A stretch of DNA of 49,992 bases from Candidatus Omnitrophota bacterium (lineage in GTDB: Bacteria; Omnitrophota; Gorgyraeia; JABMRN01; RBG-13-46-9): assembly GCA_049642705.1 (NCBI GenBank), contig JBARPB010000068.1:1-49992 (forward strand). The letters are read 5' to 3'. Under the pieces are notes generated by a model. It was given only the letters and a program-made list of their open reading frames with translations, was not told where the DNA came from and ran no database searches. The position numbers and the translations under genes were made by a program. Shown here in pieces: positions 29,922 through 49,992 of this stretch; positions within the stretch are counted from its first letter, which is position 1; every line of letters starts with the position of its first letter.

Positions 29922-29922
29922 A

Positions 29923-30171
29923 TCATTTCGACTTTAGTTTTTTTGTTATATATCTTTCGAGATTATTAAGCGTATCAAAGTTTTCCGGCATGATTTCCGG
30001 TACTTCTATCTTAATGCCGTATTTTTCCTGGATGAAGCTGGCAAGTTCGATAACACCTATGGAATCAATAATGCCTTTTTCAAGAAACGAGTCGCCGTCG
30101 TCCAAACGGGCGGAGTCGCTTTTGAGGTAATTAGAGATGATAAATCTCCTTAGCTCTTCTTTTATATGCAT
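29923..30171 (-). CDS. Acyl/peptidyl carrier protein (DltC-like ACP)
   Basis: 82 aa. LEKGIIDSIGVIELASFIQEKYGI contains the D-S-[IL] phosphopantetheine-attachment motif. The gene ends 1 nt before the ligase start codon. Confidence 0.8.
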   Translation of the reverse strand: MHIKEELRRFIISNYLKSDSARLDDGDSFLEKGIIDSIGVIELASFIQEKYGIKIEVPEIMPENFDTLNNLERYITKKLKSK

Positions 30172-31154: not shown

Positions 31155-31169
31155 GCGATATCTCCTGTT

Positions 31170-32165
31170 TTATTTTTTTTCCGTCTTAACGAAATACGGA
31201 GCGAATGCCATTTTCTTAAAATATTCGGTATAAATCTCAGAGCCCTCTTTGTTCACGTGCGAAGGGTCTCCGAAATAACTGTTCTTCAGGTAAAGTATGG
31301 GTTTCCGGACAAAAAGCGATCTCGGGTATCTTATTTTCAGGCGCCTGAAAAACTTCCGGTAATCGTTGTCGAAATTGTTCTTTTCGAAAATGCCGTAAAG
31401 TTCCTCGGGAAGAAGGAACCCCAGGAAAATAACTTTGATGTTTTTCGAAGACGCGAGTTTCATGAGTTTGTCCAGGTATTCCGTGTCCCTTGCTGAAATT
31501 GAAATACCATCCTGTATGCGCCCTGTGTGAGTAGCAAAATAATCTCCGCTAATGGCATTGCCGGCACTTGGGGCAGGCATGAAACCGTGGTTTTTTATCA
31601 TCTTTTCCACGAAAACCTTGTTGGAATAAGGGTATTTGTCCCTTACGGTAAGTCCCACCTTTCGCAAATCGAGGCTCGCCCAGTATCTCGTGATAAAAAC
31701 CCGCCTTTCTTTCCAGGTCAAATCGTTCCAGATAGAGATAAATTCCGGAATGCTTACAAAATACCTGAGTATTGTAAAAAGGGAGTCGTGCGGGTCTTCG
31801 GGGTCAATATACAGGAATACGGCTTCCGGCGGGTTGTGCCTTTTCAGGTACCTTTTAAGCAAAAGATATAAACTCATCGGTTTTCCGCCCGGAAGGCCTA
31901 AATTCAAGATTTCTTTGTTAACGGCCGTGGGATTTATGCCTGTTTTCTGGATGCTGTCGCCTACGATGAGGTATTTGTAATTTTCCGGAAGGTCCAGCAA
32001 GGCGCGTTCGTTTATGAGGAACTTGTTCCAGTAATCTTCTATAAGCTCGGCCCTGTTGGCGTAGATAAACCATTCCGTCAGCAGAAAAAGCGTCGCCGCA
32101 ATTAAAAACGCCGCCGGTATTCTTTTAAAACTGGAAGTAGTAATATTTTTGCGCACTGAAGTCAC
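31170..32165 (-). CDS. Membrane-anchored SGNH/GDSL-like protein (DltD/AlgJ-like O-acyltransferase partner of the MBOAT)
   Basis: N-terminal TM helix (IPAAFLIAATLFLLTEWFIY), a GDS block (LIVGDSIQ) and a C-terminal D-x-x-H (GDPSHVNKEG). It lies immediately downstream of the MBOAT gene and overlaps it by 41 nt. Confidence 0.55.
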   Translation of the reverse strand: MTSVRKNITTSSFKRIPAAFLIAATLFLLTEWFIYANRAELIEDYWNKFLINERALLDLPENYKYLIVGDSIQKTGINPTAVNKEILNLGLPGGKPMSLYLLLKRYLKRHNPPEAVFLYIDPEDPHDSLFTILRYFVSIPEFISIWNDLTWKERRVFITRYWASLDLRKVGLTVRDKYPYSNKVFVEKMIKNHGFMPAPSAGNAISGDYFATHTGRIQDGISISARDTEYLDKLMKLASSKNIKVIFLGFLLPEELYGIFEKNNFDNDYRKFFRRLKIRYPRSLFVRKPILYLKNSYFGDPSHVNKEGSEIYTEYFKKMAFAPYFVKTEKK

Positions 32166-33561
32166 CGTACATTATTATCAAGTATAGCAGAACGTAATAA
32201 ACGGCCGCCCTCGCGAGGATAGGCCACTTGAATAGCGCGAGTTCGTCGTCTTTTCTGTATTGAAAAAATTCCACGAACAAAACGGGTAACGCAAGAAGCA
32301 GGAATAAAGTCGATATATAGGTGTTGAAATACGCGGGAGAGAAAAGCCCGGTGGCAATGCTGTGCAGGATCTCAAAAACCTGGGGAGTGGTCTCCGCGGC
32401 AAAAAATAAAATACCCACGGAGAAAAGATGAAACACGAGTAGGATCTTAAGCGTAAGCCAGATGCCTGAGAGGAAATTCTTCTCTTTTCCGCCAATCAAA
32501 AGAAGGTAAGGGCGTATGCGGCTATAGATAACGAGAATCACACCGTGGTAGACGCCCCACAGGACAAATTTCCACATCGCCCCGTGCCAGAGGCCCATTA
32601 TTGCCCATGTAATTATCACTACAATGGGGGCGCTTAGGCGCCTCCCGAAAAACTTCGCTAAAGCAAGGGGGTAATAGAGATATTCCTTTATCCATGTCGT
32701 CAGACTTATGTGCCACCTCTGCCAGAAGTCATAGAGGTTTGACGAGAAGAAAGGCACGCGGAAATTCACCATCAAGTTAAAGCCCAGGAGCTTTGCAAGC
32801 CCCCTTGCCATATTTGAATAGCCGGAGAAATCCGCGTAAACCTGAAACGCAAAAGCGTAAGTCGCAATAAGGGCGGCGCTCCCCGCGAAGGCACTGCCCC
32901 CGCGCCCAAACGCCATATCCGTTATCTTAGCGAGGTTATCGGCTATTACTATTTTTTTAAAAAGCCCCCAGAATATAAGCCAGCACCCGCCGTAAAATGC
33001 ATCCAGCGTAATATTTCTTTTATTGGCTATCTGGGGAATGAGGTTCCGCGCCCTCTCTATGGGACCCGCTACAAGCTGCGGGAAGAATGCGATAAAAAGG
33101 GCGAAATTAAAGAAGCGCCTCGTCGGCTTTATTACCCGCCGGTATATATCGATGGGGTAACTCATCGCCTGGAAGGTGTAAAAAGAGATACCGAGCGGCA
33201 GCACTATGCGTAAGGTAACCCTGCTTACCCGCCAGCCGAAACCCCAAAGAAGAATCTGTAGATTGTCTGCGAAAAAATTAAAGTATTTAAAGAAACCCAG
33301 CATGCCCAGGTTAAGGCATATGGCTATTACAAGGAAAATCTTACTCTTACGCCTGTCGGAGGCGCTGTTTATCTTAAGGCCCAGGTAATAGTTGAAAAAT
33401 GTCGATAGAATTATAAGGGAAAGAAACCGCCAGTCCCAGAAGGAATAGAATACGTAACTGGCAAGGAGAAGAAGCAGGTTCTGCCATTTGTGCTTCAGGC
33501 ACAGGTATAGGCCGTATACAATTAAGAAAAATAGCGCGAACTGAAGGGAATTAAATAACAT
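32125..33561 (-). CDS. MBOAT-family membrane O-acyltransferase (AlgI/DltB-like)
   Basis: Typical N-terminus MLFNSLQFALFFL. Polytopic. FWQRWHISLTTWIKEYLYYPL and GLWHG carry the conserved MBOAT histidines. Confidence 0.9.
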   Translation of the reverse strand: MLFNSLQFALFFLIVYGLYLCLKHKWQNLLLLLASYVFYSFWDWRFLSLIILSTFFNYYLGLKINSASDRRKSKIFLVIAICLNLGMLGFFKYFNFFADNLQILLWGFGWRVSRVTLRIVLPLGISFYTFQAMSYPIDIYRRVIKPTRRFFNFALFIAFFPQLVAGPIERARNLIPQIANKRNITLDAFYGGCWLIFWGLFKKIVIADNLAKITDMAFGRGGSAFAGSAALIATYAFAFQVYADFSGYSNMARGLAKLLGFNLMVNFRVPFFSSNLYDFWQRWHISLTTWIKEYLYYPLALAKFFGRRLSAPIVVIITWAIMGLWHGAMWKFVLWGVYHGVILVIYSRIRPYLLLIGGKEKNFLSGIWLTLKILLVFHLFSVGILFFAAETTPQVFEILHSIATGLFSPAYFNTYISTLFLLLALPVLFVEFFQYRKDDELALFKWPILARAAVYYVLLYLIIMYGDFSAQKYYYFQF

Positions 33562-33591: not shown

Positions 33592-33960
33592 TTATCTATC
33601 TTTTTTAAGCAGGTATTCGACTGTTTTGGCGAGCTTTTTTCTTTGTGTCTCAACGATGCTAATGAACTCAATGCCTATATTGAACCGGCGGAAACCCCAG
33701 GCAGAGCATATAGTAACGATTCTTACAACCCGGCCTTTTATGCCAATAGGTTCGCCTTCAGTGGGAAGAAAAAGTGAAAGATCCAGCATCTCCCCCAGGT
33801 TGGGGAGGTTGCTCGTCCTGATGAGCGCTCCGTGCCGGCTTATGTTGATGACAGGGACGGGTGTCCTTATATTCTTATCGAATATCCTGATTCTTATGCC
33901 GTCGTCAACGCGCGGGGACCTTCGTTTTTCCGTGCCTGTGTATTCCTGCATGGCTATCAC
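33592..33960 (-). CDS. PilZ-domain protein (candidate c-di-GMP receptor)
   Basis: RRSPR (the RxxxR motif) and NISRHG (the [DN]xSxxG motif) sit at canonical spacing. It is a paralogue of 34174-34476. The likelier start is Met4 (ATG at 33951), which has AGGTGA 6 nt upstream and aligns with the paralogue N-terminus MAQYTGTEKRRSPRV. Confidence 0.8.
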   Translation of the reverse strand: MIAMQEYTGTEKRRSPRVDDGIRIRIFDKNIRTPVPVINISRHGALIRTSNLPNLGEMLDLSLFLPTEGEPIGIKGRVVRIVTICSAWGFRRFNIGIEFISIVETQRKKLAKTVEYLLKKDR

Positions 33961-34173: not shown

Positions 34174-34476
34174 CTAAACTACGTTCAGAAATTCAATGCC
34201 AACGTTAAACTTGCAGAAACCCCAGGCGGAGCATGTTGTAACTGTTCTGATAACGCGCCCTTTTATGTCAATTGGTCTTGTCTCGCTTGGAAGATATACT
34301 GAAATATTTACTACTTCCTCGGGTTTAATAAAAGAGCGGCTTCTCAAAAGCGCCCCGTGGCGGCTTATGTTAAGGACAGAACCGATCTTTCGGATATGTT
34401 TTCCGGTTATTCTGGCCTTTGTGCCGTTGGGCACGCGTGGTGACCTCCGCTTTTCTGTGCCAGTGTACTGTGCCAT
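34174..34476 (-). CDS. PilZ-domain protein (candidate c-di-GMP receptor)
   Basis: RRSPR and NISRHG motifs. AAAAGGAGG lies 6 nt upstream of the ATG. The start is 16 nt downstream of the giant-gene stop codon (34495-34493). Confidence 0.8.
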   Translation of the reverse strand: MAQYTGTEKRRSPRVPNGTKARITGKHIRKIGSVLNISRHGALLRSRSFIKPEEVVNISVYLPSETRPIDIKGRVIRTVTTCSAWGFCKFNVGIEFLNVV

Positions 34477-34492
34477 GATTATCCTCCTTTTG

Positions 34493-37400
34493 TTATACGG
34501 CTGTTATCGTTTGCCTTATGGCTTTGAAGATTTCGGATAAGCCTTCGCTTATCTTTGTAATAACGCTGAAATATCCGCCTATTTTTTCTAGCAAGCTCTT
34601 TATGCTTCCAAATGCCGTCTTATCATAACCTATTCCGACAAAGCAAGGTTTCTCCCTTACAACGGTAAGCAGGAGATTGGCCATGTTAATTTGGGCATTT
34701 TCTTCTGCGCCTTCTTTCAACGCTACATAGCTTGCCATGCGTAATGGCGTATTCTCTTTAGCTCTTAGGTCTTCCAATATGACATCGTTGAGCGTGCTTT
34801 CTTCGCCTTTTAATGCTATTGCGATTTTCGCAATGTCTACATGGTCGCCGAGTTCTCTTTTTACAGCGTGTGCAATTCTGTCAGAGAGCGTGCCTTCTTC
34901 GGCTTCCGGAATGTATATTGCACCCGGAATTCGTTCTCCTATAACGGCAACCCTTATAAGTCCGCCTTCGGCTTTTGCCAGCCTTTCGGCGAGTTCTATT
35001 ACTGAGTCATCAACCGCGCTTTTATCGAATACAAGCACCTGCGCGCCCTGCAAAATGCCTGCCTGGTTTTCAAGGAAGACAAGCATGCTTTCCATCGAGA
35101 GTGCGCCTGTTTCCTCTATTTCCCGGGCAATACCCTTGAGATCTTCCATATCTTGGCCTGTTTTCAACCGCGGGCCTATGGCACCGATAGGAAGTGGTAT
35201 AGGCATTGAAAGAAGTTCGGCTTCCCGGCCCTTTTTTTCGAGCATCCTTCTTATTTGGTCGGTTGTCGGGGCCGCTTCTTCTTGTGCAATGCTGCGCTCG
35301 ATAGTAAGTTCGATGCCTTGTTTAATTCCTCTAAACGCAAAAGCTATGCTTAACATCGGTGATGCGATCCTTTCAACCCGGCCATCTCTCATTCTCTCTA
35401 TATTCATGGCCCTGACAAAGCTCACTATTCTTTCAATCTCTTCTGTAAATTGAGGAATGCTTGTGTCTATTACTTTAGCTTTAGTAGCACCTCTTTCGAA
35501 TATTATTTCCGGGAGTAACTTACCATAAATAACCTCTCTTACTCTCATTGCAAGCTTATCTTTATCGTTGACAGCTGATATTATCGGTTCTGAATGGCCA
35601 TGCGCTACTACCTCGACTTCTCCGCTGCGATAGCCGGTTATTGCTTCGCGGCTAAATATCTCGGAAGAGGTCATGGCTATGAGTTTACCTTCCTCGTTGA
35701 AGATGATACCCGCTTTATCGGAGAATATAGGCGGTTCCACAGTTCCGTCGCTTCGTTTTCTTACCTCGTATGATACTTCATAAGGAATGACTCCATCCGG
35801 GAATTCGGCCATAAGGGATTCAAAAGCCTCCTCTGTAAGATGCTGCTTTATAAGGTCTATTAGTTTCGTGCCGTCTTTTTCGGCTTTAAGGGTTATTTCT
35901 TTAGCTTCGAATTTAAGTGTGATAATCTGGCCTTTCCTTAATATACCTCTATGGCTTTCGTATACGCGCTCGGCTATCGGACGGGCTACCTGCTCGATAA
36001 CCGCATTTTCTACCCCCTGGGCTTCTAATGCTTTCCTTGCTTGTTCTTCTGCAGTTATGACTGCCTCTGCAACAGGTGTCGGTTGCACTTTTATACTTAC
36101 GCGTACTTCGTTAAATAGCTCGCTGACAACCCTTCTTGCCTGCTCGGTAGTCGGAGCATCCCGCCTTATAGCAGGATATGAGTGAACCGCTTTCTGCAAG
36201 GCAATATCAGAAACAAGCCTTTGGAATTTCTTAGGCCTCATCTCATATCCTAGCTCTTTACGTATACCTTCTAATGTTACTATCTGCAATATATGAGCCA
36301 GTTCATGCCCTTCGGCTTTTTGCATAAAGCGCGTCGTGCTCCATATAATCGGCGCGACAATGCCGTATCCGATGAGAGTTACCAAAATCCCTGGAACGAA
36401 ACCATGTATAGAGCTATAAGCCAGGCCAAACATCGCCCATGTTGCCATATGCGTTGGGTATAGTTTGCCTCTATTAGGCGAATACACGATCTCCGTAATC
36501 TTTTCATCCTTATCAAACTTCACCAATGTTGCAGGACCTATCTGCTGAGTAATGAAAGATAACAGATGCCCAACCAGTTCTGTGGCTGCAAAAACGGTCT
36601 TCTTCCTATCGAATTTTATTAACGAAGCAAAGAATGTTCTGGTAGCATCATAAATACCTCTTATCTTCTCTCTGTTAAATTCGGCGAGAGTAAGTTGTCT
36701 ATCCGAAATTTTAATGCCTTGTGCATCTGCCTGTGTTCTTACAAAAGTCTCAAATTCACCTATAGAGCCAAGGTGGCTTGTCACCTTGCTAGTCAGACCC
36801 TTCTCTATTTCCTCCAACTTCTGATGCAACGTAGCTGGTTCAGCTTTAGTTTGCGCAAGCAAACGTTCAAACTTGGCTAATTTATCCGAGTTCGACGCTA
36901 ATGCTTCTCTAATTATATCTGTTTGCATAAATAAGCCGGTCGTTACAAGGTATCCGACTAATTGCTCCGCTGTCATTGTTTCGGCACGCCTTGCTAAGTC
37001 GCGGGCGTCTAACCCACCACCCATTGGCGGGAGTGTTGTGGGCTCTGTTCTTCCAGTCCTTAAGACAATGTATTTTAATAGTGTTTCTATATCTTCATTT
37101 TTAATCACACCTGTTATTTTATATGTATTTAGGTTCACTAAAATATTCTCTAATCCATCGTTATGTATCATATGGTAATAATTCTTGAATATAGAAGCCG
37201 CATCTCTCGCTTCCAGTTTTCCGTTTAGTACCAGCTTTGGTAATGCGCTTATGATATTTGTCCTGTCGTTTATATTAAGGTATGGTAATATAGTTTGTAT
37301 AATATTGTCCCATGTAAATACTGTAATCGTGGGCCTGCCGGCTACTTGTATGCGGGATTCAAGGGCTGCTGAAATAAGGGATCTGGCTTCGGAAATAGTC

Positions 37401-40400
37401 AGTGCTTGTTTGCCAGTCTTCTGCATCATAGAAATAATATCGCCAGCCAGACTGCCAGGTATGGCACTATTCATTCTATAATAATTCCTTAATGTACCAG
37501 TACTATCTCTTTGCTTTTCCTTTGTCAGTAAGCCTATGCCTGCCAGCGATTCAAGGTCTCTGTCAAGTTCGGCTAATTTATCCGGGTTCGACGCTAATGC
37601 TTCTCTGATTATACCTGCCTGCGTAAATAAGCCGGTCGTTACGAGGTAACCGACTAATTGCTCTGCAGTCATTGTTTCGGCACGCTCTGCCAAGTCACGC
37701 GCGTCCAGCCCTCCGCCCATCGGCGGAAGTTCGGTGGATTTTTGCGCTTTAAGGCTAAACATGGCATATAAAATATCTGCGACGCGCGGGAATTTGGCTC
37801 TAAAACCTTCCCTATCGGCAGCACTCAATGCAATCACCTGAGCAATTGCTTCATGTAGTATGTCATCGCCGCGCCGTTCTCCTGGTAGTCTTAGTTTTTC
37901 CATGCGGAATTTTGCCGCCTGGACTTCATTTGGGTCATCCAATCCAAAACCTGCTGCCACAATTTCTTGAATTGCTCGATCCGTCGCACCTTGTCTAATC
38001 AACGAAGTTATATTATATTCTTCATCAATGACATGCCCAACTTCATGAGCAATTATAATCTGTTTATCATTGCCAAACCGTGGTGTTTCACGTAACGATA
38101 TAAGCCTGCGCTTTATATCAACTCTTGCGTCAACAGGAAGCCCGCCGACTTTTAATACTTCTTCATTGATTTTGTCCCATTCTTCATTGCTTACAACTTG
38201 TATCTTCACGCCAAACTCAGCAGCTAACTCTTCACCGAATTTCACAGTTCTGCTAACCTCCGATGGCTGTTCCTCGACGACGGCCGGCTTCGCGGCTTCT
38301 CCGGCGGCTTTTTCGGCTCGTTCTCTCGCAGAGCCTTTGTGCGCCAAAAGTGCTTTTATTTCCGGCGAGAGCGAGAGCTTGGTTCCATCTGGCCTGATTC
38401 CACTTGTAATATCTGCTAACTTGTAATAATTCCTATCGTGCCTTTCTTTTGTCAATATGCCTTCATTTACTAAACGATTGAGGTCTCGCAAAACAGTGCT
38501 GTACGCGGGCGCGTTGCCTTCGGCGGCCTGCGCTTTAAATACCTCGCCCAGTATCTTCTGCGCTGTGTATTCTTCCGTTTCTCCTACGAAGAACGTCACT
38601 ATCATCTCTTCCCTTGTGGCTCTATTTAAGGTCGTGGGTTTTTTGGCAACTTTTTCGGGTTCGGCGGTCGCTGTCTCGACTCTATTTGCTTCTTCAGCAT
38701 CTCCTTGCGCGTATTCTTTTATCCTTTCCCTCGCTTCCTTCGCTGCAATTCTTACTTCTTCCTCTCCTCGTATTCTACGATTTTGTTTTAACAACCTTAT
38801 AACTTCATCAAGTGTTGTGGCTGTTTCTATCTTATATGCCAATGCCTTAATGTAATATTCTCTAACTTTGCCTATCGCCTCTTTTACCTCTCGCCTATCC
38901 CTGACGCTCTTGAACCCTTCCTGCGTTAAATAATTATATGCCGCATCCAAGGTCGGCGCGTTATAGATTAGGGGTATCAATCTGTTTACATCCGCATCGC
39001 CTCTTAACGCGGCTCGTTCCTCTGCCGCATTTTGCTTCTGCCATAAATTAATTGAATCAATCTTGTCCTTCATGTATCTTACAAAATCTTCATTTTCACT
39101 GATTTTCGGATTAAGCTTAAGAAGCATTTCATACTTACTCCGTGCTTCTTCAAAATCTCTCTTTGCATCCTCTAATTTTCCGCTTTTAAGCGCTTCGTTC
39201 GCTCTGTCAAAAGCCGTAATAACCTCTTTTTCTAATTGTTCTAGTTTAGGCGCTATAGGTTCCATTTCAAGCTGTTTGTATATCTCATCCAGCTCTGCAA
39301 GCGTTTCTTTTCTTTGTCGTTCGAAATCTTTTGATTTGATTCTCCCCAGTTTAGCCTGGATCTTTTTTCTTGTTTCTTTATTTAAATTCGGCCCACCCAG
39401 GGCTTTTTCATAAGCACTTGCCATGTTTGCCGCCGTTTCTGCTTGATTTAGTCTTCTTAAAACACTGTCTAATGCCGTTGATATCTTTATTACGCGTCTT
39501 GCTTCTTTCGGTTTTATATCGCCGGAGGCAAGCTGCCTTTTGACTCGCTCAAGGTCAGCCAGAGCAAGCTTTACAGCTTTTCTTTGGTCAATATCACCTA
39601 TTCCTTTGTTGAGATCTTCTATTAGATTATCTAGGGCATTGTCTACTTTTCTTGCCACTGAAAGTGCATTTATTACTTTCGTTTTCAGCGTAGATAAAGT
39701 GGAAGGTTTTCTCGCTTTGCCCTTAATTAGCATTACGAGAGACATCATAATTCCGGCACTTACTATGTTTCCCGTCGCCATTGCGGAAGTGCCGGTTAGT
39801 CCAAAAATACCTGTGGCCAGCAATCCGCCAAAGGTTACAAATCCTGCGCCTGCAAGCCACCCCACCACAGGTATCGCAAGTAATGATAACAACGCGCCGG
39901 CTGCAACAGCCTTCTTTACGCTCTCGCCCACTGACGGGGAAATAACCCTTTCTTCCACAAATGTCTTTCCGAGGTCTTCCAATACAAATGTATTCTCGTT
40001 TCTATATCCTATTACAATATAGTGGCCGCTAATAGGCATTACAAAAATATCCTTGCTATTTATGATATTTTCCAATTCCTGCCTGTTTTCCGCGAAGTAA
40101 CTTTCTAATGCTTCTGCGGTATCTATGGGGAGCTTGTATTCGTCTTGTATGCCTGCTAATTTCAGCGTTGCCGTATTCGCGGCTCTATCGCGGTTTGTTA
40201 TTCGTATCGGAGCGGTTTCTTTCCGTCTTTGTTCGGCTTTTGCTTCATTTACAGCCTGAGATACATCTACTTTCCTGACTTCTCTTTGGGCCACCGCAGA
40301 ATCCGCTCTTTCTACTGCCTGCGCCTGGGCTGTACGCACCAATGTCTGCACCATGCGCGGCCCGAACAACCTGCTGTAGGCCCGATCCAGCATTCCGGGT

Positions 40401-43400
40401 TTGTGCTCTTTGACGGGTTTTATTTCAAGCTCTGCCAGATGCGAAGTAATCGACTTTTCTGCCTGCGATATAGATTCCCTTACGCTCTCTTCGCTTAATG
40501 ATTCCGCCTTAGACTCCCTTGCTATCGCCAGTTTATTCGCTACCTTATCCGTAAAGTTTTCCATTACATCCTTGAAGGATGCAATCATCTTTCCGGCGTA
40601 TTTTCTAAATCTAACTTCTCTGCGTAGCTTTCTTGAGTTTGCCAGGAACTCAACCCACATATCATCGATAGACTGGGTTACGATATTCATGAGATCGGCC
40701 TGCGAAACGTTCTTAATCACGGATTGCAGGATAACCTGCGCTAATCCGTTATTATCAAGGCTCCTTATAGAATCTTCTGTAATGCCTTCGAGCGAAATGC
40801 TGAATCTTGACTTAATTGCCCCTAACATGTCCTTAAAGTTAAATTCTGCTTTTTGATCTCTGTATTTCTCTACGAGTTTCAATGTGGCTGTTTCTAAGAT
40901 GCTATCGATTGTAATCTCACGGGATTTTCCGCCAAGTATCGCGTTTCTCAATTCGTGGTATGACTTCTGCATCCTGTATTCAAATGTGTTAAACCTGGCG
41001 GCGGAAGCCCTCATCCTGAGTTCGGCTTTATCTATATTATCCTGGGCTTTCCTGGTTGACTTTCTTATGTATCTCGTTGCCTTTCTTATGTAATTTCTTT
41101 GGGAATCCGTTAACTCACGTCCTTCTTCAAGGGCCTGCTTTATTTCTTTAAGGGCCGGTTTTATTTTTAATATCCTCTCATACCTGCTTTTAATGAGTAT
41201 GTTTATGAGTATGTTTCCACCGCGATATATACCGTTTTTGTAAGCTAAACCTCTCTCGAGCATGGCAAGATCCGCTCCTTCGAGCGACATAACTGACCAC
41301 GCTTCGCCAGGGTTATCCTGACGCGCCACCCTGCCGTCTGCCTGCCTGTCAATTCTTCGTGATTTATTAACTTCTCTTATTAGCTGCAATCCGAATACAT
41401 AGGTAGTAAATACCATATTCATAAGTTCGGGTGCTTCTATTCCTTGTCTCTTAAAGAAATCTCTTACCTCTTTCGCCTTTTCTTTCATCGCTTTGGGATT
41501 TCTGTTTTCATTAAGCCTGTCAATTAATTTGCCCAGTTCCTGCTTTTGCGCCGGGGTTAGCACACGGGATGCCTCTTCCAGTATCTGACTCCTGCCGGGC
41601 AGTTTAATATCGGTGGCGCGGCCTGCTATATTAGTCGCGATGGTCACCATGCCGGGTGTACCGGCTGTTTCAACTATCGCTTCTTCGTTCCATTCTAACG
41701 ATGCGTCAAGAAGCTGCATGTGCTCGGCATCCACTATGCCTTCGCTTATTAATATCCTGTGGAACGCTTTCGCGTCATCCATATTTCTGAACGTAACAAG
41801 TATGGGTGCACCCGGTCTCGTATTCCTTATTTCATATATCTTATTCTTTATATATTCAACCTTTTCTCTGCCCGTCAGAACGATTTCGGTAAGATTGTCT
41901 TTTCTCAAGCTTTCAGAGTGAGGAGGCATCCTGACCACTTCTCTATTAAAGAGTTTCCTTAGTTCTTTCTCCGCTTCCATGACGGTTCCGCTGCAGCCGC
42001 TGAAGTGTTTGTATTCGTTTACTAAGAGGTCTCTTATGCTCATCTTGGCTATGGTCTTGTATTCTCCGTGTATATCGAGTCCTTCTTTTGCCTCTACTGC
42101 CTGCGCAAGGCCGTCTTCCCAGCGTTGTCCCTCTAAATCGCGGCCAGTTGCCTCGCTTACGATTATAAGTTTGCGCTTTCCGTCTTTTTCCGTTTCGATT
42201 CTGTACTGTATATCTTCGTGGTAAAGAAGGTGTGCTTCAAGGGCTCTTTGTATATGATGTTCTTCCAGATTTGTCATATTTTTCATTACGCCCTCATGCC
42301 TAATCGCCTGTATCAATCTACCGACAGCCTTTTTACCTTCTTCCTTAAGCGTAAGAGTTCTTGTGGTCCTGTTTAAACTATAATATTCGTTAGTTTCTAA
42401 TTTTTGCGTTATGCCGCCTACATCTTTTAATGTAACTTTTACCTCCCCGCCTTCAGGACGGATTCGCCTTGCTATCTTATCGGCAATTATATATACGGCG
42501 GCCTCGCCGGCGCTGAGTGGTTCGCCTGCGCCTTCTGAAAGAATACATTCGGATAGCGCCTGGTCCAACGTTATGTTATCTATTTCGTCTACGTTAGCGT
42601 AATTGAGTTCTCTCGTAATATATTTTTCTTCTTCCCGATGTGTTCTTAAGTCGTGTAGTTTATCAAACCTAACTGTTGTGTTCGCGACATAAACTACATC
42701 CGCACTATATGCCTTCCTCTTAGCTTCCAGTATTTTCTCTCCCCTGTTTTCCGCGTCTTCGGATATACCCATATCTCTTGTTACAAAGCTTGGCTCTATG
42801 CCTAACATATCAAAGATTGGTTTTGTCTCATTGAAATCCCGCTCGGCAAGGAAGTCCGCCGTAACAAGCTGGTGCGCACTTTTACCGGTTAAGGCATGCA
42901 GATAGAGCGCGAGCACGCTCGTTAAGGTCTTACCTTCGCCTGTTCCCATCTGAATGATTATCTCCTCAGCAAGTAGTTTTCCCGCGTATGACTGTTCTTT
43001 GTGCGGCGCGAATCCATACCCGTCTGCTAATAGGGTTGCCAGTATGAAGGCGCTTGTTGCGTCTAATACCACCGCTTTCCTCTGCATGCGGCCTCTAAGG
43101 TTACTGGTTATCTGTTCAGGTATCTTACTCAGGGCCTCTCTTATAGCTTTGCCTCTTTCGGACTTAAGGCTTATGCCCTGGTTATTTAGCGCTTTTTCAA
43201 AGGTTACTTTTTCTTTTTGTCCTTCTTTGGAAAGAACTCTTTCGATAGCACTTATCGCAACGCCGGCATCTTCCGGAAGTAGGTTTTGCCTTATATGAGT
43301 AAAGAGGTTGCTGTTGGCAGCGGCGTGGTTTTTCTTGAGGGCTTTCCTCACCGCTTGCTCTCTGCCAAACCATCTTACTTTTATCCTGTTTATCTGTCCT

Positions 43401-46400
43401 ATTACGAAGCTTCTTATCCTCTGCACGGTTGACATATCTGACTTGAGTAGTTTGAAGGTCATCTCGTCTACTGTAGTGGCTCTTCCGCTCTTTGTTTGCA
43501 ACCTGTTCAGTTTGTCGCAGAGCCTGGCGTTTGTAATGAGATTCGCATACTGTGTTCCCAGTTTGCGCAGGAAAGCCTCCCCTACCGCATGGTCTAATGA
43601 ACCGTTTTCAATAAGCTTTTCCGCGATGGGTATTATTCTCTCCAGCATCTTGGCTCTTTCAGCGAATACTGCCCTTGCCTGTCTTAACGCCTTGCCCTTA
43701 TCTTCTGTTCTTCTGAATGTCTGTATGCCAAGTGTATTCAAGCTATTTACAATATACTGAGCGTTATTCGGAGTAGAAGCGAGTTTTTCTACATTGGCCA
43801 TTTTCGCCGCTACCATTTTGGCTATTTCATTTACGGATATTTCTTTTTGTGCATTATTTAATCGTATTCCGAACGCTCTAAATAAAGTCCTTAACCGTTT
43901 GGTAATCTTTAGGCTGCCGTTTTCTATTCTCACCATGCCTTTCGGATCTTTTACTTTTGCTTCAAGCGCCATTCTGACGGCTTTAGCATTCATGGGCGTA
44001 ATGCCGTAAATCGCGAATACCGCCAGTTGCGTATAACTCATGTATGGCAGGCTCTCTCCGAGTGACTGAATCGCGGATAATGTTTCAGGTGTTAAATTTC
44101 TTAATAGTATATTTGGCCTGCCTTGTAAGAACTCCTGCATGAGCGAATAATCGGAACTTAGCGGCATCGCAAGCTCGTTCATTAATTTCGTTACTTCTGA
44201 AGAATCCATTTTTGCAAGTTTGTCGAGCCTGTAATGGCGCATAATAAGGCCTGCTTCACCGTACTTTTCCTTGTTTGCGGTGCTTACAATTATGGAATTC
44301 TTCAGCATGTTATTTATGTTGATCTTGTTCAGATTGTTGAATAGAGAACCCGATACGAAACCTGCGCCTAAAAGGTGCTCGCCGATTGTATTTGTGTCCT
44401 TTTCTGTCAAATTCTTGAAGTCATGAGCGGTCGGATTGATGCCCAATTGCGCTAAAGCCGGCAGTATTGCTTCAATGTTGCCCCGTGCATTCGCAAACAG
44501 GGCGCCCATTACGATTCTCTTCATATGGAACCCTATATCCTGCTGTCTCAAGGTTCCCAGGTTCTGCGAAAATGCCTGTGCTATGTCGGTCTTTGCATCA
44601 TGGGCAAGAGCCGGGTCGATAGTTTGCAAAATAGCAATACCGTTTACTATCGCGTCTATCGCTTCCTGTTTCCAACCCAGGCCTTGATAGGTTGGCATTT
44701 TTAACCGCGCCATTTCAATATTTAGCGCGCCTTGTCTCTCCAATAATTCTCCTTTGATTTCTGTTAATTTAGATTCTATCCCATTTATAGCAACAGCGAT
44801 AGCATCCCATGGCGCAGGACCGCTTTGCTCAATTTGAGCTATTAAACTGTCTATGTGCTCTAAGGTTCTCCTTAGGGTTAAATTATATCGGAAGCGGGCT
44901 TCTGTCTGGTATTGTGATTCTGCGGCGCCTTTCGGTGCATAAGTTAGCTCTTCTATTCGGTTCTTTATGCGTTCTCGCAGCTGCGGAAGGTTGGCTTGTT
45001 CTTGCTTATCTCTTAATTGGTTTTCCAGTATTGATATTTCCTGTTTAAGTTGCACGATTTCATTTTGAATTTCTGCAATCCTTGGAGGCGCGCGGTCGCC
45101 GAGGTTTAGCATATTCATGGTACCTTTTGAATCAACCGCATGGTCTATTACTGCGCTGATTACAACTCTTATAAATTCTCCTCCGGAAGTAGCAAGGTTA
45201 TTACCTATTTCGGTGATAATCAATCGCTTGGCTTGTTCGTTGGAATTCGAAAGAATTGCCAATAGGTGCCTCTCTCCCTTAGATAAACCGAGCGAAGTAA
45301 GGACATCTAAAACCGAATCGGTTATAACTCCGCCTGAGAACGCAATTACAACGCCCCTCGCTGTCTGTTTCGCTTTTGTGCTTATATCTCCGGGGGTATT
45401 TAAACCTATTTGATTAAACAGCATTTTCCCTGTTTTTACCAAGGCGTCATTATTGCTTTCGAATAGTTTGTTTAACGCGGCCGCATCGGCTTCATAAATA
45501 CCGAATGTAGTTAAGTTTTCTGCGCTGCCGTTCATAAGTTGTGTGGACAAAGCGAGCTCTTCTACGGCAGGTTTTAATGTAGCTTCCGAAATTCTTCCCG
45601 TCATTGCCAGATATCTCAGATTTGATAAGAGATGCCCGTCGTTTATCTGGACTTGAGACAACCCCATGTTCTCGAGGGCTTTTATATCCCAGTTATTGAC
45701 TACATTTATAAGCTTCGCATTTTGTTTTGTAAAGTTCTTGATAGACTGCGTAACTTCTAACAACCCGACTTGTTCAAGGTTTGATTTTATGCTGGAATTG
45801 GTTATATCGGCATTTGCTAATTGGTTCGTTAGGATATTCACTTCCTGCTGAGTGGCCGTGCCTTCCTGCACCCTGCCTACCGTACCTATGTCAATACCAG
45901 CATCCTGCAGGGCCCATCTTTGGTTCGTGTTGGAAAGGTTTATTTTGCTTGCAGCTTTTTCGACAGTTCCCCTTGCAATGTTCTTGCTCGTATTGCTGAA
46001 GCTCGATCCAAAACTAACATCGCCGAATTCAACGAGGTATTCGGCGGTTGCGGGAGATACGCCGAATGCCTGCAAAATGGCACTTAGTATCGGCTCTTTA
46101 ATTCCTTCTTCCCAGATGCCCTTAATTGACCCTAATTTGAAGAACCGTTTTGCGAACCTTCCGACCCAAGCCGGGAATTTGACTATAACGTTTTTGAACC
46201 CGGCCCCTATCCTCACAGCGGCAAATCCTACAGGATTTCCAATCATTTTCCCTATCCCCAATGTTTCCACGATTTTGCCGCCTATTTTGCCTAAAAATTT
46301 CCCTGCAGCCAGAGCAAATATTTGGATAAACGGCCCTAATGCGAAGAACACTATTACAAACATCGGGTTTCTTACGGTTGTGTTCATCATGCCGTCCAGT

Positions 46401-49400
46401 ACGCTGCCTTTTTCAACAACAAACTTATTCGGCACGACCTGGCTGACATTCCATCCAAAGCTCGCCAGGGTCATCCATATAGTTCTTCCGAGCCCTTCCG
46501 GTCTTTGCGCCAGTGTATTCATTAGATCCGTAGGATTATCAGCGCCAAACCACAGCATGAGAACAGGAGTTATCGCCGCTCTGCCCGTGATCCACAGCGA
46601 GGCTCCAAACCATCCTATTTGAATCGTGGTTCTAACCAGCGCCAGCGTAGCGCCTTTTATGGTCAGGTATTGTGCCACCGCGCTGTGGCCCGCAAATATC
46701 GCCTTAAGAGCCGAACCTCTAAAGAAGAGGTGGGCTTTGCTAACAAAGTTATAAATTGCGTTGGCCAACTTTGCCTTCAAGCCTGCTCCGGAAATAAGCT
46801 CTTTCGCTATTCCAGTAAGCGCCGCATTAATTTTACCCGCAATCGCGGCCACGCCTTTTCCGAGGACACAAGCGGCGATAACCATACCTACTATTTCTAT
46901 AGCGTCTCCCCAGGTATAACCTCTCCAGAACTCCGCTCCGATATAGGTGCTTTTCTCGTGGACTCTGAACGCATCACCTATGCCTCCTATTCCGAGAGAA
47001 AGGCCTCTTACAAGAGCGGTAAATCCATTTGCTATTTCAAAAACAACTCTGCCAAAATCTGATTTTTCTGCCCACACCGCCATCGTATCCATTAACGCAT
47101 GTCCGGCTGTGTATTGATATCCAAAAGCAGTGTTTGGCTTATCGATTACTACGTTTCCTTCTTTATCTATATGGCCGGATCCGTTCGAACCTGCATATTG
47201 AACAAGAGATACAACAACTCCGACTATCGCGCCAACTACTGCACCTATTGCAAATCCTATCAAAGTACCGATAAAAGGAGTGATGCATGTTCCTATGATG
47301 CCCCCGAGCACTGCTAATGTTCCGGCAAATGTTCCGACATTCGCCAACACGCCATCGGTAGTCATGCCTCTTGCAACCAGCTTCTTATCCAAGTCCTTAA
47401 ACGCGCCGAACGCCGAAGCAATAACTCCGCCAATTACTCCTACAGCCAATCCGATAGCAGCACCTACAGCTGCTCCTACCAACGCTCCAACTCCGAAGAA
47501 CCAGACTCCGATAGCAGCTCCGATTACGGCGCCCGTTGCGCCGCATGTAGCAGTTCCTACCGCGGCATTTCTGTCCATGAATCCAAGGTCAAATGCGCCT
47601 CCTGCGATAAGCCCGACTATCGCGCCGACTATTGCGCCTATTCCCGTACCGATAACCGGTATAACGCTTCCTATAGCAGCGCCTATTGCTGCTCCGCCAA
47701 GAACCCCCGTTGCTGTGCCTTTGATTTTGATTACGCTTGTATCTGCAAGAATGCCAAGTAATAATCCGATGCCGGCGCCGATTATAGCTCCGATTGCCGT
47801 CCCAATAACCGGGAAAACGCTACCTATTAAAGCACCAAGCGCCGCACCACCCGCTACACCGGTCAAGCTGCCTTTTATTTTACCAAAGATACCAAGATCC
47901 ACTGATACACCTGCTATAAGACCGACTATTGCGCCTACGAGTGCGCCTATTGCCGTGCCTACGCCTGGTATAATACTTCCTACTAAAGCACCCAATGCTG
48001 CTCCACCTGCTACGCCTCCTATGCTGCCTTTTATTTTACCGAGGGCCCCTGTGTCGTAGAGAATTCCTCCTGTCAGTCCCACAACTGCTCCTATAGCAGC
48101 GCCTATCGCTGCTCCTACTAAAGCCCCAACGCCAAAGAACCATACTCCGATAGCGGCTCCTATTGCTGCACCTGCTGCTGCACCGCCTGCCACACCGACT
48201 CCGCTACCTACAATTCCCATGGACTTTAGGTCTTTTACTGCATCTCCTGCAACGCCTATTACGGCGTCCAATATCTCAGAGGCAACGAAGGCAAAGAGAA
48301 TGCCCACTATTGGCGCGTACTCTTTTACAAAGTTCCACGCCCTGCCTGCGGCATCCTTAATATTGTCCCACTGCCAGATTATAAGTTCGGAGATGCCCAG
48401 GGTTACTATACCGAGGCATACCCTTCCTATTGTTGAAGCGTTTTCCTTTACAAAGCCCCACGCCCTGCCTGCCATGTCTTTTATATTATCCCATTGCCAT
48501 CTGATAAGTTCTGAGATACCCAGGGTTACTATACCGAGGCATACCCTTCCTATCGTCGAGGCGTTTTCCTTTACAAAGCCCCACGCCCTGCCTGCCATGT
48601 CTTTTATGTTATCCCACTGCCAGATTATAAGTTCGGAGATGCCCAGGGTTACTATACCGAGGTAGACTCTTCCTATTGTTGAAGAGTTTTCCTTTACAAA
48701 GTTCCACGCGATACCAAAACCTTCTGCCATGGCGGCTGTAAAGCTCTGGTGTGTTCTGGCGTACTCAGCGGCAAAAGATTTCGCCTGTTGATGGCTAAAA
48801 CCAAAAAGCCTGCTCATAGCATAAGCCGTGCCATAATTTGTACCGTACCATACCGCGCTTGCTCCGGCTTTTATGTTATCCCATTGCCATATTATAAGTT
48901 CGGAAATACCCAGGGTTGTTATAGCAAGGTAGATTCTGCCCACTATTGGCGCGTATTCTTTTACAAAGTTCCATGCCCTGCCTGCGGCGTCTTTTATGTT
49001 ATCCCATTGCCATATTATAAGCTCAGAGATGCCCAGGGTTGCTATGCCTACGTAAACTCTGCCCACTGTTTTTAATATCTCTTTTTCTGAATCTTGCTTA
49101 CCTAACTCTACGGCAGCATTCCAAGCTGTTTCTTCGTCAAAAGAAACAACACCTGCTTTTCCTCCCCACCACTTTAAGCCATACTGAAGAGCGGCGCGAA
49201 GACCTATTTTCTTAAGCTGCCCCCAGGTTGTACTGTCAGGGTGATTCTTTGCAAGTTGCGTCATTTCATTCAATCCTAAGGCTGCGTCAGGAATTCCCTG
49301 GACACCTGTAACTTTGATAATTTTGTGATCGAGTCCTGTTTTTTCTGCAAACTTGAAAATTTCGCCATTTATCGCAGCTCCTTCTACACCCACAAGCTGC

Positions 49401-49992
49401 TTAAGGCTCGTTGGGTCAAGGCTTAAATGGCCGCCTGGAATATGAACTATCGGCTCGCCTTTTTCGTCTAATCTGAAAGATGAAACATTTGCTGTTTCGC
49501 CGTCTTTAGTCCTTAGTTGACAATCTATAAGAAAAACGTTTTTCGCATCAACACCCGTTTGCTCAGATACCGCTTTGAGATGCGCAGCCATTTCTTCGAT
49601 ATCTGCGTAAGTGCCATTTGCAGCGAACGCTTGTTGTTCTTCTTCCACTCCATCACTAGTGTAGGTCTTTGTCACTACCTTAAAAACTCCTCCTTCGAAA
49701 TAGGTGTAATCTATGCGGGTTACTACGGTTTTTCCGGTTAATCTGTTGAATCCCGCACCTATTACGAAGATGACCTTTCCGCTTAGGTCTTGGACGGCGA
49801 ATGTGAGGGACTCTAATGCCTTGCCCATACCTATGAATGCAAGGCCTTCTGTGAACTTGGCGAATGCCGCTATGCCTCCTGCGCCCGAGAAGTCGTGTTT
49901 TATTGCTTCTGCTCTTATCTGGGTTATCTGCGCATCTGTTAGATTTAATGCGCCTTGTGCGCTGTCGTATATGTTTTCTCTTCCTATTAAGG
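34493..49992 (-). CDS. Giant membrane-associated protein with embedded SecA-like motor (>=5,166 codons; probably 5'-partial)
   Basis: The track lists 34493-49828 (5,111 aa) from the first ATG. I translated 49829-49992 in the same frame and it stays open and protein-like (...[60 protein letters not shown]). No convincing SD precedes ATG 49828, so the true start is probably beyond the right edge. The stop is TAA. Confidence 0.85.
   Translation of the reverse strand, partial: [5165 protein letters not shown]
36293..36307 (-). other. HEXXH motif 2 (HELAH, aa 4508-4512) immediately after two hydrophobic helices
   Basis: [54 protein letters not shown]. This suggests a membrane-proximal zincin-like site. 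The family is unassigned. Confidence 0.4.
36875..37033 (-). repeat. Internal 159-nt duplication, copy B (encodes [35 protein letters not shown]...[10 protein letters not shown])
   Basis: See copy A. Confidence 0.8.
37571..37729 (-). repeat. Internal 159-nt duplication, copy A (encodes [35 protein letters not shown]...[10 protein letters not shown])
   Basis: Collinear with 36875-37033, with about 25 mismatches in 159 nt by my hand alignment. The copies are 696 nt (232 codons) apart and in frame. Confidence 0.8.
38033..38047 (-). other. HEXXH zinc-metallopeptidase motif 1 (HEVGH, aa 3928-3932)
   Basis: [15 protein letters not shown] read from the track protein and located on the DNA (atgcccaacttcatg). 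The surrounding family is unassigned. Confidence 0.45.
38412..38620 (-). other. Winged-helix-like module (first of three ...NYY[KRH][LM] units)
   Basis: [28 protein letters not shown]...[31 protein letters not shown] resembles MarR/ArsR-type wHTH (recognition helix, then a G.L wing). Related endings recur: [20 protein letters not shown] and [22 protein letters not shown]. By eye only. Confidence 0.35.
39725..39915 (-). other. Cluster of about 3 transmembrane helices C-terminal to the SecA-like region
   Basis: [64 protein letters not shown]. Confidence 0.6.
40520..43010 (-). other. Nearly full-length SecA-like translocase ATPase region (NBD1, PPXD, NBD2, helical scaffold), aa ~2274-3100 of the giant protein
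   Basis: Motif-for-motif match to E. coli SecA as I recall it:
- [41 protein letters not shown] versus [41 protein letters not shown] (Walker A at 42926-42946)
- [15 protein letters not shown] versus YALVDEVDSILIDEA
- [40 protein letters not shown]...FSGCSGTV versus [40 protein letters not shown]...LAGMTGTA
- [16 protein letters not shown] versus VTIATNMAGRGTDIVL
- [32 protein letters not shown] versus [31 protein letters not shown]
- [26 protein letters not shown] versus [26 protein letters not shown]. Confidence 0.85.
47215..48215 (-). other. Array of glycine-zipper (GxxxG/AxxxG) transmembrane hairpin repeats, about 5-6 units of ~52 aa
   Basis: Example: [52 protein letters not shown], repeated three times. 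Two units containing [17 protein letters not shown][IV]GAAIG flank these, and a further [20 protein letters not shown] unit follows. The composition matches glycine-zipper 2TM-type domains. Confidence 0.7.
48303..49068 (-). repeat. Five in-frame copies of a 41-aa (123-nt) hydrophobic repeat (2 + ~55-aa spacer + 3)
   Basis: The protein unit is GRAW[NG]FVKE[YN]A..[IV]GR[VI].LGI.[8 protein letters not shown][IR]WQWDNIKD.A. By my hand alignment, adjacent DNA units 48418-48540 and 48541-48663 differ at about 11 of 123 positions. Confidence 0.85.

Follow-up and report, generated by a model that had tools for sequence, protein, structure and literature searches.

The DNA analysed here (hereafter, the window) is the entire 49,992-bp contig of a Candidatus Omnitrophota metagenome-assembled genome (MAG). 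The open reading frame (ORF) at its right end, referred to here as g2 (34493..49992, minus strand), very probably encodes a polytopic giant Omnitrophota protein with a SecA module in the same chain. The explanation that we favour for the locus as a whole, with moderate confidence, is an inner-membrane giant protein in which this SecA motor powers the export of parts of giant proteins. Residues are numbered from window position 49990 (amino acid, aa, 1), and all features of the window for which coordinates are given below lie on the minus strand.

Omnitrophota are tiny symbiotic or predatory bacteria, and their giant proteins are among the largest proteins known. West-Roberts et al. (2023; 10.1101/2023.11.21.568195) described Omnitrophota giants with many transmembrane (TM) helices, in which most of the predicted domains are extracellular and divergent SecA domains (SecA_DEAD and SecA preprotein-binding) are embedded, and Seymour et al. 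(2023; PMC10066038) described a 39,678-aa protein with 42 TM segments from Velamenicoccus archaeovorus. A 2026 preprint (10.64898/2026.06.07.730766) reported that 94% of 916 long proteins from Omnitrophota have a signal peptide or TM helices, and described an architecture cluster of 20 proteins with SecA_DEAD (PF07517). The initial annotation of the window had considered a chain alternating between cytoplasmic and extracytoplasmic segments to be unusual for a giant protein; these three studies contradict it, as polytopic giants with SecA are the described norm in Omnitrophota. The closest homologs of g2 are from Omnitrophica or Omnitrophota, and g2 is an instance of this already described class rather than an anomaly. 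It resembles the other members in belonging to the same phylum, in its very long ORF, in its separated TM clusters and in the presence of a divergent SecA ATPase with a PPXD in the chain; most of it has no Pfam match, it contains peptidase-like modules and a second giant gene lies next door. By contrast, g2 is truncated, and the 5,165 aa that are visible are fewer than the 10-30 kaa of the proteins catalogued to date (cut-offs of >10,000 aa in the 2026 catalogue and >30,000 aa in the work of West-Roberts et al.). Glycosyl hydrolase, dockerin, C39 and S8 domains are absent from its visible part, and the 50-kb contig has no type II secretion or pilus genes, which are frequent at such loci without being obligatory. 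What is new here is the scaffold/wing domain of its SecA, two families of HExxH modules, the shuffling of cassettes among its relatives and a family-specific C-terminal domain. These features refine a known phenomenon and do not overturn current views.

A complete SecA module in a single reading frame

A complete SecA core was identified at aa 2273-3134 (40589..43174), with four Pfam SecA domains above their gathering scores. The SecA_DEAD/NBD1 domain (PF07517; aa 2273-2678, 156.6 bits) contains the Walker A motif GTGEGKT at aa 2349 and the Walker B motif VDEIDN at aa 2467, and is followed through the PPXD, or SecA_PP_bind (PF01043; aa 2525-2633, 66.4 bits), by NBD2, or P-loop_SecA (aa 2695-2905, 85.1 bits), with AGRATDI at aa 2789 and the arginine-finger motif RRIDRQADGRVARQ at aa 2878. 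The scaffold/wing domain SecA_SW (PF07516; aa 2973-3134) scored 29.2 bits, against a gathering score of 26.7, and includes the two-helix-finger sequence RFRKYAGK at aa 3127. In the alignment with E. coli SecA (2vda), the best PDB match (E=8e-65), the GEGKT, DEID, AGRATDI, RRIDRQxxGRxxRQ and RKYAGK motifs are kept; the E. coli counterpart of VDEIDN is VDEVDS and that of RKYAGK is RGYAQK, including the Tyr of the two-helix finger. The same elements (NBD1, PPXD, NBD2, helical scaffold, two-helix finger and ATPase motifs) align with canonical SecA in general (E. coli 2vda and 2fsf, B. subtilis 1m6n). The module lies between a polytopic region rich in glycine zippers and a 62-aa hydrophobic cluster (both described below). 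A 21-nt tandem repeat (41123-41166, 2.1 copies), probably trivial, was also found between NBD2 and the scaffold, and encodes the heptad (P/Q)ALKEIK / QALEEGR.

The giant-protein SecA domains described by West-Roberts et al. (10.1101/2023.11.21.568195) were reported to be without the scaffold/wing and two-helix finger. The g2 SecA, in contrast, keeps both, and PF07516 is also carried by its relative P0001; at least some giant-protein SecA domains therefore retain these elements. Close relatives of the SecA part are limited to P0001 and P0002, a pair of fragments from the same "Candidatus Omnitrophica bacterium" MAG. They display 56-59% identity to g2 in the SecA part and are collinear with g2 over aa 1506-3654, at 44-47% identity. 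As this MAG was assembled independently, the collinearity indicates that the succession of helical region, SecA, membrane cluster and coiled region is conserved as a single reading frame. The domain content, motif integrity, conservation and origin of g2 are directly observed.

The g2 module differs from canonical SecA in several respects. Canonical SecA is a free, soluble protein of 800-1,200 aa, whereas the g2 module is embedded in a membrane protein; it has an insert of ~65 aa in NBD2, and no match to the SEC-C zinc tail (PF02810) was obtained in g2, whereas the canonical SecA matches carry this domain. Identity to canonical SecAs is 28-36%, and the scores for the NCBIfam SecA equivalogs fell short of both cut-offs (328 bits versus 814 for NF009538, and 309 versus 800 for TIGR00963), as did those for all the SecA2 models (170-257 bits versus 725-1,100). 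Judged from these scores, the g2 SecA is a divergent paralog. Low scores and low identity would also be expected of an inactive SecA relic kept only for a structural or binding role within a very large scaffold of the envelope, and the giant-protein SecA domains are known to have very long branches (West-Roberts et al., 10.1101/2023.11.21.568195). However, the loss of Walker or arginine-finger residues would be expected of such a relic, whereas all the catalytic motifs checked are intact and identity in the Omnitrophica ortholog fragments remains high, making this explanation improbable. Because every feature for polypeptide clamping and SecY engagement is retained, the module can be read as an active export motor, and we consider this reading of the sequence to be somewhat better supported than its negation. 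A parallel for the idea of a specialised SecA paralog serving unusually large envelope proteins is provided by the accessory Sec systems (SecA2/SecY2), which are specific for very large adhesins. The ATPase of these systems is a separate polypeptide working with its own SecY2 and accessory proteins, whereas the motor of g2 forms part of a giant membrane protein and the contig has no SecY2-like gene.

The frame encoding this module is intact. On the minus strand, g2 runs for 5,165 sense codons (49990 to 34496) without a stop, the first stop being the TAA at 34493-34495. Stops account for 7.8% of codons in the off-frames of the same DNA, so an open frame of this length cannot be attributed to chance. 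We scored 54-codon windows with a codon-usage log-likelihood model trained on the rest of the g2 ORF. The coding margin was positive throughout g2 (minimum 2.2), and three intergenic stretches gave negative scores with the same model. The first in-frame ATG/GTG/TTG of g2 within the window is ATG 49828. The 54 codons upstream from it have a coding margin of 25.6, above 91% of within-gene windows (18.3 +/- 5.9); the other frames of the same 162 bases scored no more than 4.9. Directly before this ATG, AAGGCCTTGCATTCATAGGT contains no Shine-Dalgarno (SD) site at usable spacing, whereas AGGAGG-type sites precede neighbouring genes, such as the PilZ gene at 34476. Given the coding character of the upstream codons, the absence of an SD and the coincidence of the window edge with the end of the contig, the N-terminus of g2 was lost to assembly. 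The initial annotation was therefore correct in describing the frame as open to the right edge, the codons before ATG 49828 as protein-like, this ATG as having no convincing SD and the gene as starting outside the window.

A full HMMER scan retrieved a 5,111-aa protein 100% identical to g2 (P0121; NCBI MGB2706011.1 / WBC74_04070, hypothetical protein) beginning at ATG 49828, the record of which places it on one contig only, of 49,992 bp. This public record is not marked as partial and is an internal-Met truncation of g2. An exact look-up of the 5,111-aa product matched no record, and scans of the genome and metagenome contig collections with the N-terminal 300 aa of g2 revealed no related locus. 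The only other copy of the locus found is on a 5.3-kb Logan contig (SRR28062514), which breaks exactly at the g2 end. Stop-codon recoding was considered as a cause of the long ORF and rejected: g2 is devoid of all three stop codons, and the neighbouring genes use all three.

A chimeric or misassembled fusion of several genes might in principle produce such an ORF, as g2 lies on a MAG contig with near-identical internal repeats and a close relative (P0122, see below) differs from it by a whole module. We nevertheless consider such an artefact to be extremely unlikely: all 54-codon windows have a positive coding signal, independent assemblies are collinear with g2 over aa 1506-3654 (P0001 and P0002) and aa 4645-5165 (P0122), the use of all three stop codons by the neighbouring genes speaks against recoding, and giant ORFs are well documented in Omnitrophota.

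Hydrophobic regions and tail modules

Hydropathy scans of g2 gave 15 or more strong candidate spans, distributed over three separate regions (aa ~306-1233, 3361-3422 and 4510-4553). The N-proximal region (aa 1-305, 49076..49990) has no hydrophobic segments and matched no homolog or family. A word-index search with the N-terminal 600 aa yielded no homolog, and PDB sequence and profile searches with the N-terminal 2,299 aa gave no meaningful match. This region is followed by five 41-aa repeats, one with a 48-aa insert (aa 306-562, 48305..49075), with the consensus GRVYLGIVTLGISELIIWQWDNIKDxAGRAWxFVKExxxx. The DNA repeat finder detected their 123-nt period at 48212-49070, together with the 153-156-nt units of the glycine zippers. 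The initial annotation had described the 41-aa repeats as hydrophobic and membrane-weaving. The repeats are indeed present, but their helix is only marginal as a TM segment (Kyte-Doolittle value ~1.7; Hessa-scale sum ~+3.7 kcal/mol, all such sums here being crude). A weak match to a TrbE TM segment was obtained in this region, and a stronger hydrophobic segment follows the repeats at aa 558-582. The repeat helices are either marginal TM helices or the buried helices of a solenoid; amphipathic surface helices were also considered and were rejected on the basis of the low hydrophobic moment (0.11).

Six glycine-zipper units follow (aa 590-941, 47168..48223), matched by Pfam Gly-zipper_YMGG (PF13441) in five stretches, with 64.2 bits against a gathering score of 28.9. 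Each unit is an uncharged stretch of 43-62 aa with a central P-x-x-G turn, and K-rich linkers of the GKIKG type join the units. Their sequence indicates that they are probably membrane helical hairpins. YMGG-like glycine zippers occur in small outer-membrane lipoproteins of the SlyB/Pcp type, as a single hairpin. The g2 units are similarly uncharged, G-x-x-x-G-rich helical hairpins, but there are six of them in tandem, in a giant protein presumably of the inner membrane. A further hydrophobic region (aa 1029-1233, 46292..46906) contains strong TM candidates at aa 1029-1054 and 1208-1233, with weaker ones between them, and gives way to a K/R-rich stretch (aa 1230-1300, 13 K/R versus 4 D/E). A full topology built by hand from positive-inside counts was abandoned, because it led to contradictory parities at aa 880-1230. 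The long region between this point and the SecA module (aa 1330-2270, 43181..46003) has no family match; from aa 1506 onwards, it is conserved, at 44% identity, in the Omnitrophica fragment P0002.

The second hydrophobic region is an uncharged cluster of 62 aa (aa 3361-3422, 39725..39910), with two or three spans, conserved in the ortholog fragment P0001. The adjoining charged helical or coiled region (aa 3430-3790, 38621..39703) is conserved to about aa 3654 in P0001 and has only a weak TPR match. The remainder of the tail consists of modules, four of which are referred to here as M1 to M4. An HMMER scan with aa 3780-4979 retrieved 31 proteins, each with only one or two g2 modules. A word-index search with the C-terminal 1,386 aa found nothing, and the relatives came from the full HMMER scan only; PDB sequence and profile searches with the C-terminal 1,735 aa and with modules M1, M3 and M4 yielded nothing meaningful.

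Three winged helix-turn-helix (wHTH)-like modules were recognised, at aa 3800-3862 (38405..38593; ...LNRLVNEGILTKERHDRNYYKL), aa 4122-4177 (37460..37627) and aa 4225-4278 (37157..37318). The initial annotation had listed wHTH-like modules here. They share a motif (...G.L....NYY), but none reaches a Pfam threshold. Module 1, with its NYY motif, matched Penicillinase_R with E=0.05 (matches to this family scored 14.3-14.6 bits against a gathering score of 22.6), module 2 matched PadR (E=0.0022, 18.4 bits versus a gathering score of 27) and Sta1 (E=0.033), and module 3 is recognised solely from the motif common to modules 1 and 2. Between the first two lies M1 (aa 3913-4093, 37712..38254), with HEVGH at aa 3982 (38033-38047). 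In an alignment of five sequences (A2; homologs P0128, P0131, P0135 and P0141), H82, E83 and H86 are invariant, as is a Glu 22 residues downstream (E109). The best Pfam match of M1 is Peptidase_M78 (E=0.0048, 17.1 bits versus a gathering score of 22), which was matched by one of the five members, and the module weakly resembles a minimal ImmA/IrrE-type gluzincin in its sequence. ImmA/IrrE proteins, which are paired with HTH repressors, share with M1 the HExGH motif, the Glu 22 residues downstream and, in the flanking wHTH-like modules, a similar context. Unlike them, M1 is below threshold and lies within a giant membrane protein, in a part that is possibly exported, with no cleavable repressor partner evident. 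A single-sequence AlphaFold2 (AF2) prediction for aa 3780-4100, covering wHTH-like module 1 and M1, was unusable (predicted local distance difference test, pLDDT, of 47). One M1 homolog, P0135, occupies positions 3001-10128 of a Logan contig (L004, SRR17658280) and is a complete protein of 2,375 aa that lacks both a signal peptide and TM segments. Three genes upstream on this contig, at a distance of about 2.6 kb, a protein with a phage tail Collar domain is encoded. The M1 family may also occur in phage or tailocin-like contexts.

M2 is duplicated, with copies at aa 4086-4146 (37553..37735; LPPMGGGLDARDLAERAETMTAEQLVGYLVTTGLF...) and aa 4318-4378 (36857..37039). At the DNA level, the duplication covers 175 nt (36867-37041 and 37563-37737) with 85% identity; the boundaries of the internal repeats rest on the DNA repeat finder, and a self-BLAST of aa 3701-4450 gave no off-diagonal matches.

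M3 (aa 4392-4644, 36059..36817) contains the second HExxH motif, HELAH, at aa 4562 (36293-36307), directly preceded by a 44-aa hydrophobic stretch (aa 4510-4553). Its family, with 13 aligned sequences (alignment A1), shares the conserved motif GHExxHxxQ...E.IR and had no prior annotation: no Pfam match at E<0.01 was obtained for any of the 13 members, and a PDB profile search was empty. The AF2 model from this alignment is confident (pLDDT 86, predicted TM-score, pTM, 0.78) and places, in order, an N-terminal helical part, a beta-hairpin, hydrophobic helices at aa 4513-4529 and 4531-4555 (36326-36454) and the HExxH helix. A Foldseek search with the model gave no structural match (best E values of 0.2 against PDB and 0.75 against BFVD). 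The initial annotation had listed a TM pair followed by HEXXH. The hydrophobic stretch before HELAH is there, but in the model the pair looks like a hydrophobic hairpin inserted within a folded HExxH domain. With these adjustments, the order of segments given in the initial annotation is essentially right, as the repeats, glycine zippers, SecA, hydrophobic cluster, HEVGH, duplication and HELAH were located in the order listed.

The C-terminal domain M4 (aa 4646-5165, 34496..36055) matched no Pfam or PDB entry, and contig scans with its alignment (A4), in the same collections as above, found no related locus. M4 is C-terminal in seven of its 10 carriers; in P0124 and P0126, the match stops where the truncated record ends or diverges, and in P0151 the domain is internal. 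The last residues are conserved: the extreme C-terminus (aa 5152-5165, 34496-34537) is near-invariant in P0122, P0136 and P0139 (...GGYFRVIxxxSEGLSEIFKAIRxTxxAV), and more distant M4 proteins have a similar amphipathic helix ending in ...AL or ...SL. This conserved C-terminus could be a sorting, docking or membrane-targeting signal. A JAB/MPN-like reading of an H-x-H motif in the N-terminal half of M4 (AHGHSEP, with HTHP in some relatives) was rejected, as the two His residues are not conserved across the family and Pfam lends no support. P0122, the close relative from Logan (1,157 aa), is 80-84% identical to g2 over the C-terminal domain, with M2 joined directly to M4 and no M3; its first 573 aa do not match g2. 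The absence of an entire M3 from so close a relative indicates that tail modules come and go as cassettes. The g2 tail is thus a set of shuffled cassettes, M1 to M4, including two unannotated HExxH families. M4 is also found in other large Omnitrophota proteins: P0127 (5,516 aa) and P0126 (1,476 aa), which are encoded on one contig, and P0123 (3,339 aa).

Placement of the tail and proposed export

The activity of the motor, its SecY partner, its cargo and proteolysis by M1 and M3 are what we infer for g2. The SecA ATPase must face the cytoplasm. It would be an active ATPase on this face of the membrane, held there permanently by the flanking spans, and would engage a SecY-type channel and drive the extracytoplasmic parts of giant proteins across the membrane. 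The likeliest substrate would be its own ~1,740 aa following the cluster at aa 3361-3422 and/or, in trans, the neighbouring co-directional giant g1. The exported tail would comprise the two zincin-like HExxH modules M1 and M3, the three wHTH-like folds and M4, and these parts would act on substrates of the envelope or of host or prey surfaces, or would trim the giant chain itself.

The position of the SecA motor, directly upstream from the cluster and the tail, counts in favour of export of the tail, and further indications come from the relatives of the tail modules. Among N-complete proteins of the M3 family, eight of 10 begin with a Sec-type signal peptide, with a clear A-x-A-type cleavage motif in five. 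In six of these eight, the signal peptide and M3 are not separated by a hydrophobic segment (P0125 and P0142 have one each). The preponderance of signal peptides in this family argues for the export of the C-terminal ~1,740 aa. P0149, a protein of the secreted type, has an M3 without the hydrophobic hairpin, and M2 occurs in P0137, a signal-peptide protein with no TM segment. The 62-aa cluster can accommodate three 19-mers, with Hessa-type sums of 1.1-2.3 kcal/mol, values that range from favourable to marginal for insertion.

Several observations weigh against this reading. The 30 aa after the cluster contain 8 K/R and only 1 D/E, and a flank so rich in K/R would be placed in the cytoplasm by the positive-inside rule. 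In P0001, a Lys lies midway through the cluster, which fits two spans better than three. Together, the K/R-rich flank and this Lys favour a hairpin with both ends inside. The wHTH-like and IrrE-like modules are normally cytoplasmic, with both assignments below threshold here. No SecY-like gene, SecY/E/G or second SecA was found on the contig. The relatives with M1, M3 or M4 have no match to the g2 SecA region, and two of the large M4 proteins, P0123 and P0127, have no Pfam match; the tail modules are therefore not dependent on a SecA in cis. Finally, a score of only 328 bits, against an equivalog cut-off of 814, makes an altered SecA function possible. The initial annotation had the chain alternating between cytoplasmic and extracytoplasmic segments. 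Such an arrangement is plausible rather than proven, with the M3 signal peptides in its favour and the K/R-rich flank and the Lys of P0001 against it. If M3 forms one domain, as suggested by the pTM value, its "TM pair" would be a hairpin or a re-entrant segment, and M4 would then lie on the same side of the membrane as the region preceding M3. On the sequence evidence, export of the tail after aa 3422 is finely balanced.

The same observations form the basis of a different explanation, in which g2 is a cytoplasm-facing scaffold: all the visible hydrophobic clusters would be even-numbered hairpins, with nothing but short turns extending into the periplasm, SecA, the wHTH-like modules, the HExxH modules and M4 would all be cytoplasmic, and SecA would act in trans, for example on g1. 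The K/R-rich flanks after both the TM candidate at aa 1208-1233 and the cluster at aa 3361-3422, the Lys of P0001 and the usual cytoplasmic location of wHTH-like and IrrE-like modules fit this explanation, as do the glycine zippers, with K-rich linkers and uncharged P-x-x-G turns suiting hairpins with both ends inside. The confident single-fold model of M3 likewise implies a hairpin rather than a single pass, and g1 is co-directional and polytopic, with an N-terminal signal-anchor. However, signal peptides predominate among M3 proteins, M2 is present in a signal-peptide protein without TM segments and the 62-aa cluster has room for three spans. The M1 and M2 homologs lacking a signal peptide (P0131 and P0134), which might have been taken to indicate a cytoplasmic tail, are unusable for this purpose, because they start no more than 75 nt from contig edges and the P0131 frame is open upstream, its N-terminus being truncated. 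We consider the scaffold possible, but on the unlikely side.

The HExxH modules could also be linked to the motor in a different manner, with the anchored SecA unfolding polypeptides and feeding them to the HExxH modules of the same chain, as an ATP-dependent membrane protease. FtsH has the order TM-ATPase-HEXXH, and the layout of g2 recalls it: a single chain carries an anchor in the membrane, an ATPase that translocates polypeptides and two HExxH modules in which H, E, H and a downstream E or Q are conserved. However, SecA is not known to feed proteases, the features for SecY engagement (the PPXD clamp and the Tyr of the two-helix finger) are retained, and between the motor and the first HExxH lie ~850 aa, including a membrane cluster. 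M1 and M3 are, moreover, candidate peptidases only, M1 being below the Pfam threshold and M3 having no structural relative, and P0122, which is so similar to g2 in its C-terminal domain, has no M3. Such a protease is, therefore, decidedly improbable.

Within the export explanation, the question of cargo is graded differently. West-Roberts et al. (10.1101/2023.11.21.568195) proposed, as a speculation, that the embedded SecA exports the giant protein itself, in cis. From the sequence of g2, we regard the export of its own C-terminal tail in cis as a tentative proposal, plausible without being probable. In its most specific form, a tethered SecA seated on SecYEG would push its own ~1,740-aa tail across the membrane, with the HExxH modules trimming or releasing the chain, or acting on the envelope of a host or prey; on sequence grounds, this form is unlikely. 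If it were true, exporter and cargo would be combined in one chain, which would explain how Omnitrophota translocate loops of kilodalton to megadalton size. For the question of export in cis, g2 provides a comparatively small and well-delimited unit, with a motif-complete SecA, a conserved 62-aa cluster and a tail containing M3. It goes beyond the earlier speculation in offering a compact, complete motor, a defined candidate cargo and signal-peptide evidence for the family of a cargo module.

Neighbouring genes and other giant loci

Besides g2, the contig carries g1, a 1,021-aa ORF, genes for a TPM protein, an acyl ligase and an acyl carrier protein (ACP), WbuX-like, DUF1574-like and DltB-like MBOAT genes, and two PilZ genes. 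The first giant ORF, g1 (3-24137), extends over at least 8,045 codons and is cut off by the left end of the contig, so that its C-terminus is missing. A segment at its N-terminus resembles a signal-anchor, and there are TM clusters at aa ~1443-1529, 1797-2012, 2494-2524, 6893-7098 and 7784-8016. Its Pfam matches are Glyco_hydro_130 (E=1.8e-8) and a marginal OEP (21.9 bits versus a gathering score of 22), with no SecA. Lying on the same strand as g2 and downstream from it, g1 may be served by the g2 motor. Directly upstream from g1, the 1,021-aa ORF (24487-27552) has no Pfam or NCBIfam match and lies in the stretch of the contig with the lowest GC content (0.38-0.41, versus ~0.45 elsewhere).

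A Dlt-like surface-acylation cassette (27826-33561) is located between g1 and g2. It encodes a DltB-like MBOAT (2e-46), a DUF1574-like protein, a WbuX-like N-acetyl-sugar amidotransferase (1e-42), a DltC-like ACP of 82 aa, an acyl ligase of the AMP-forming kind (most similar to exosortase-A-associated ligases, 7e-109) and a protein with a TPM domain, with NCBIfam scores below the equivalog cut-offs in all cases. Immediately downstream from g2, there are two small PilZ-domain genes (33592-33960 and 34174-34476); the one nearer to g2, at 34174-34476, begins 17 nt past the g2 stop and has a canonical AGGAGG site. Their presence hints at control of the locus by cyclic di-GMP.

Neighbouring giant genes were also observed at two loci with M4 proteins. 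On one contig (L002, GCA_042567795.1, 1-26551), the 1,476-aa and 5,516-aa genes lie ~6 kb apart, with four genes between them, including an extracytoplasmic function (ECF) sigma factor / FecR pair. On the other (L003, Logan SRR14699969), the next gene after the 3,339-aa gene encodes at least 4,420 aa. Pfam records were obtained for three of the genes at these loci, and all three are without a match. Tandem giants thus seem to recur on Omnitrophota contigs.

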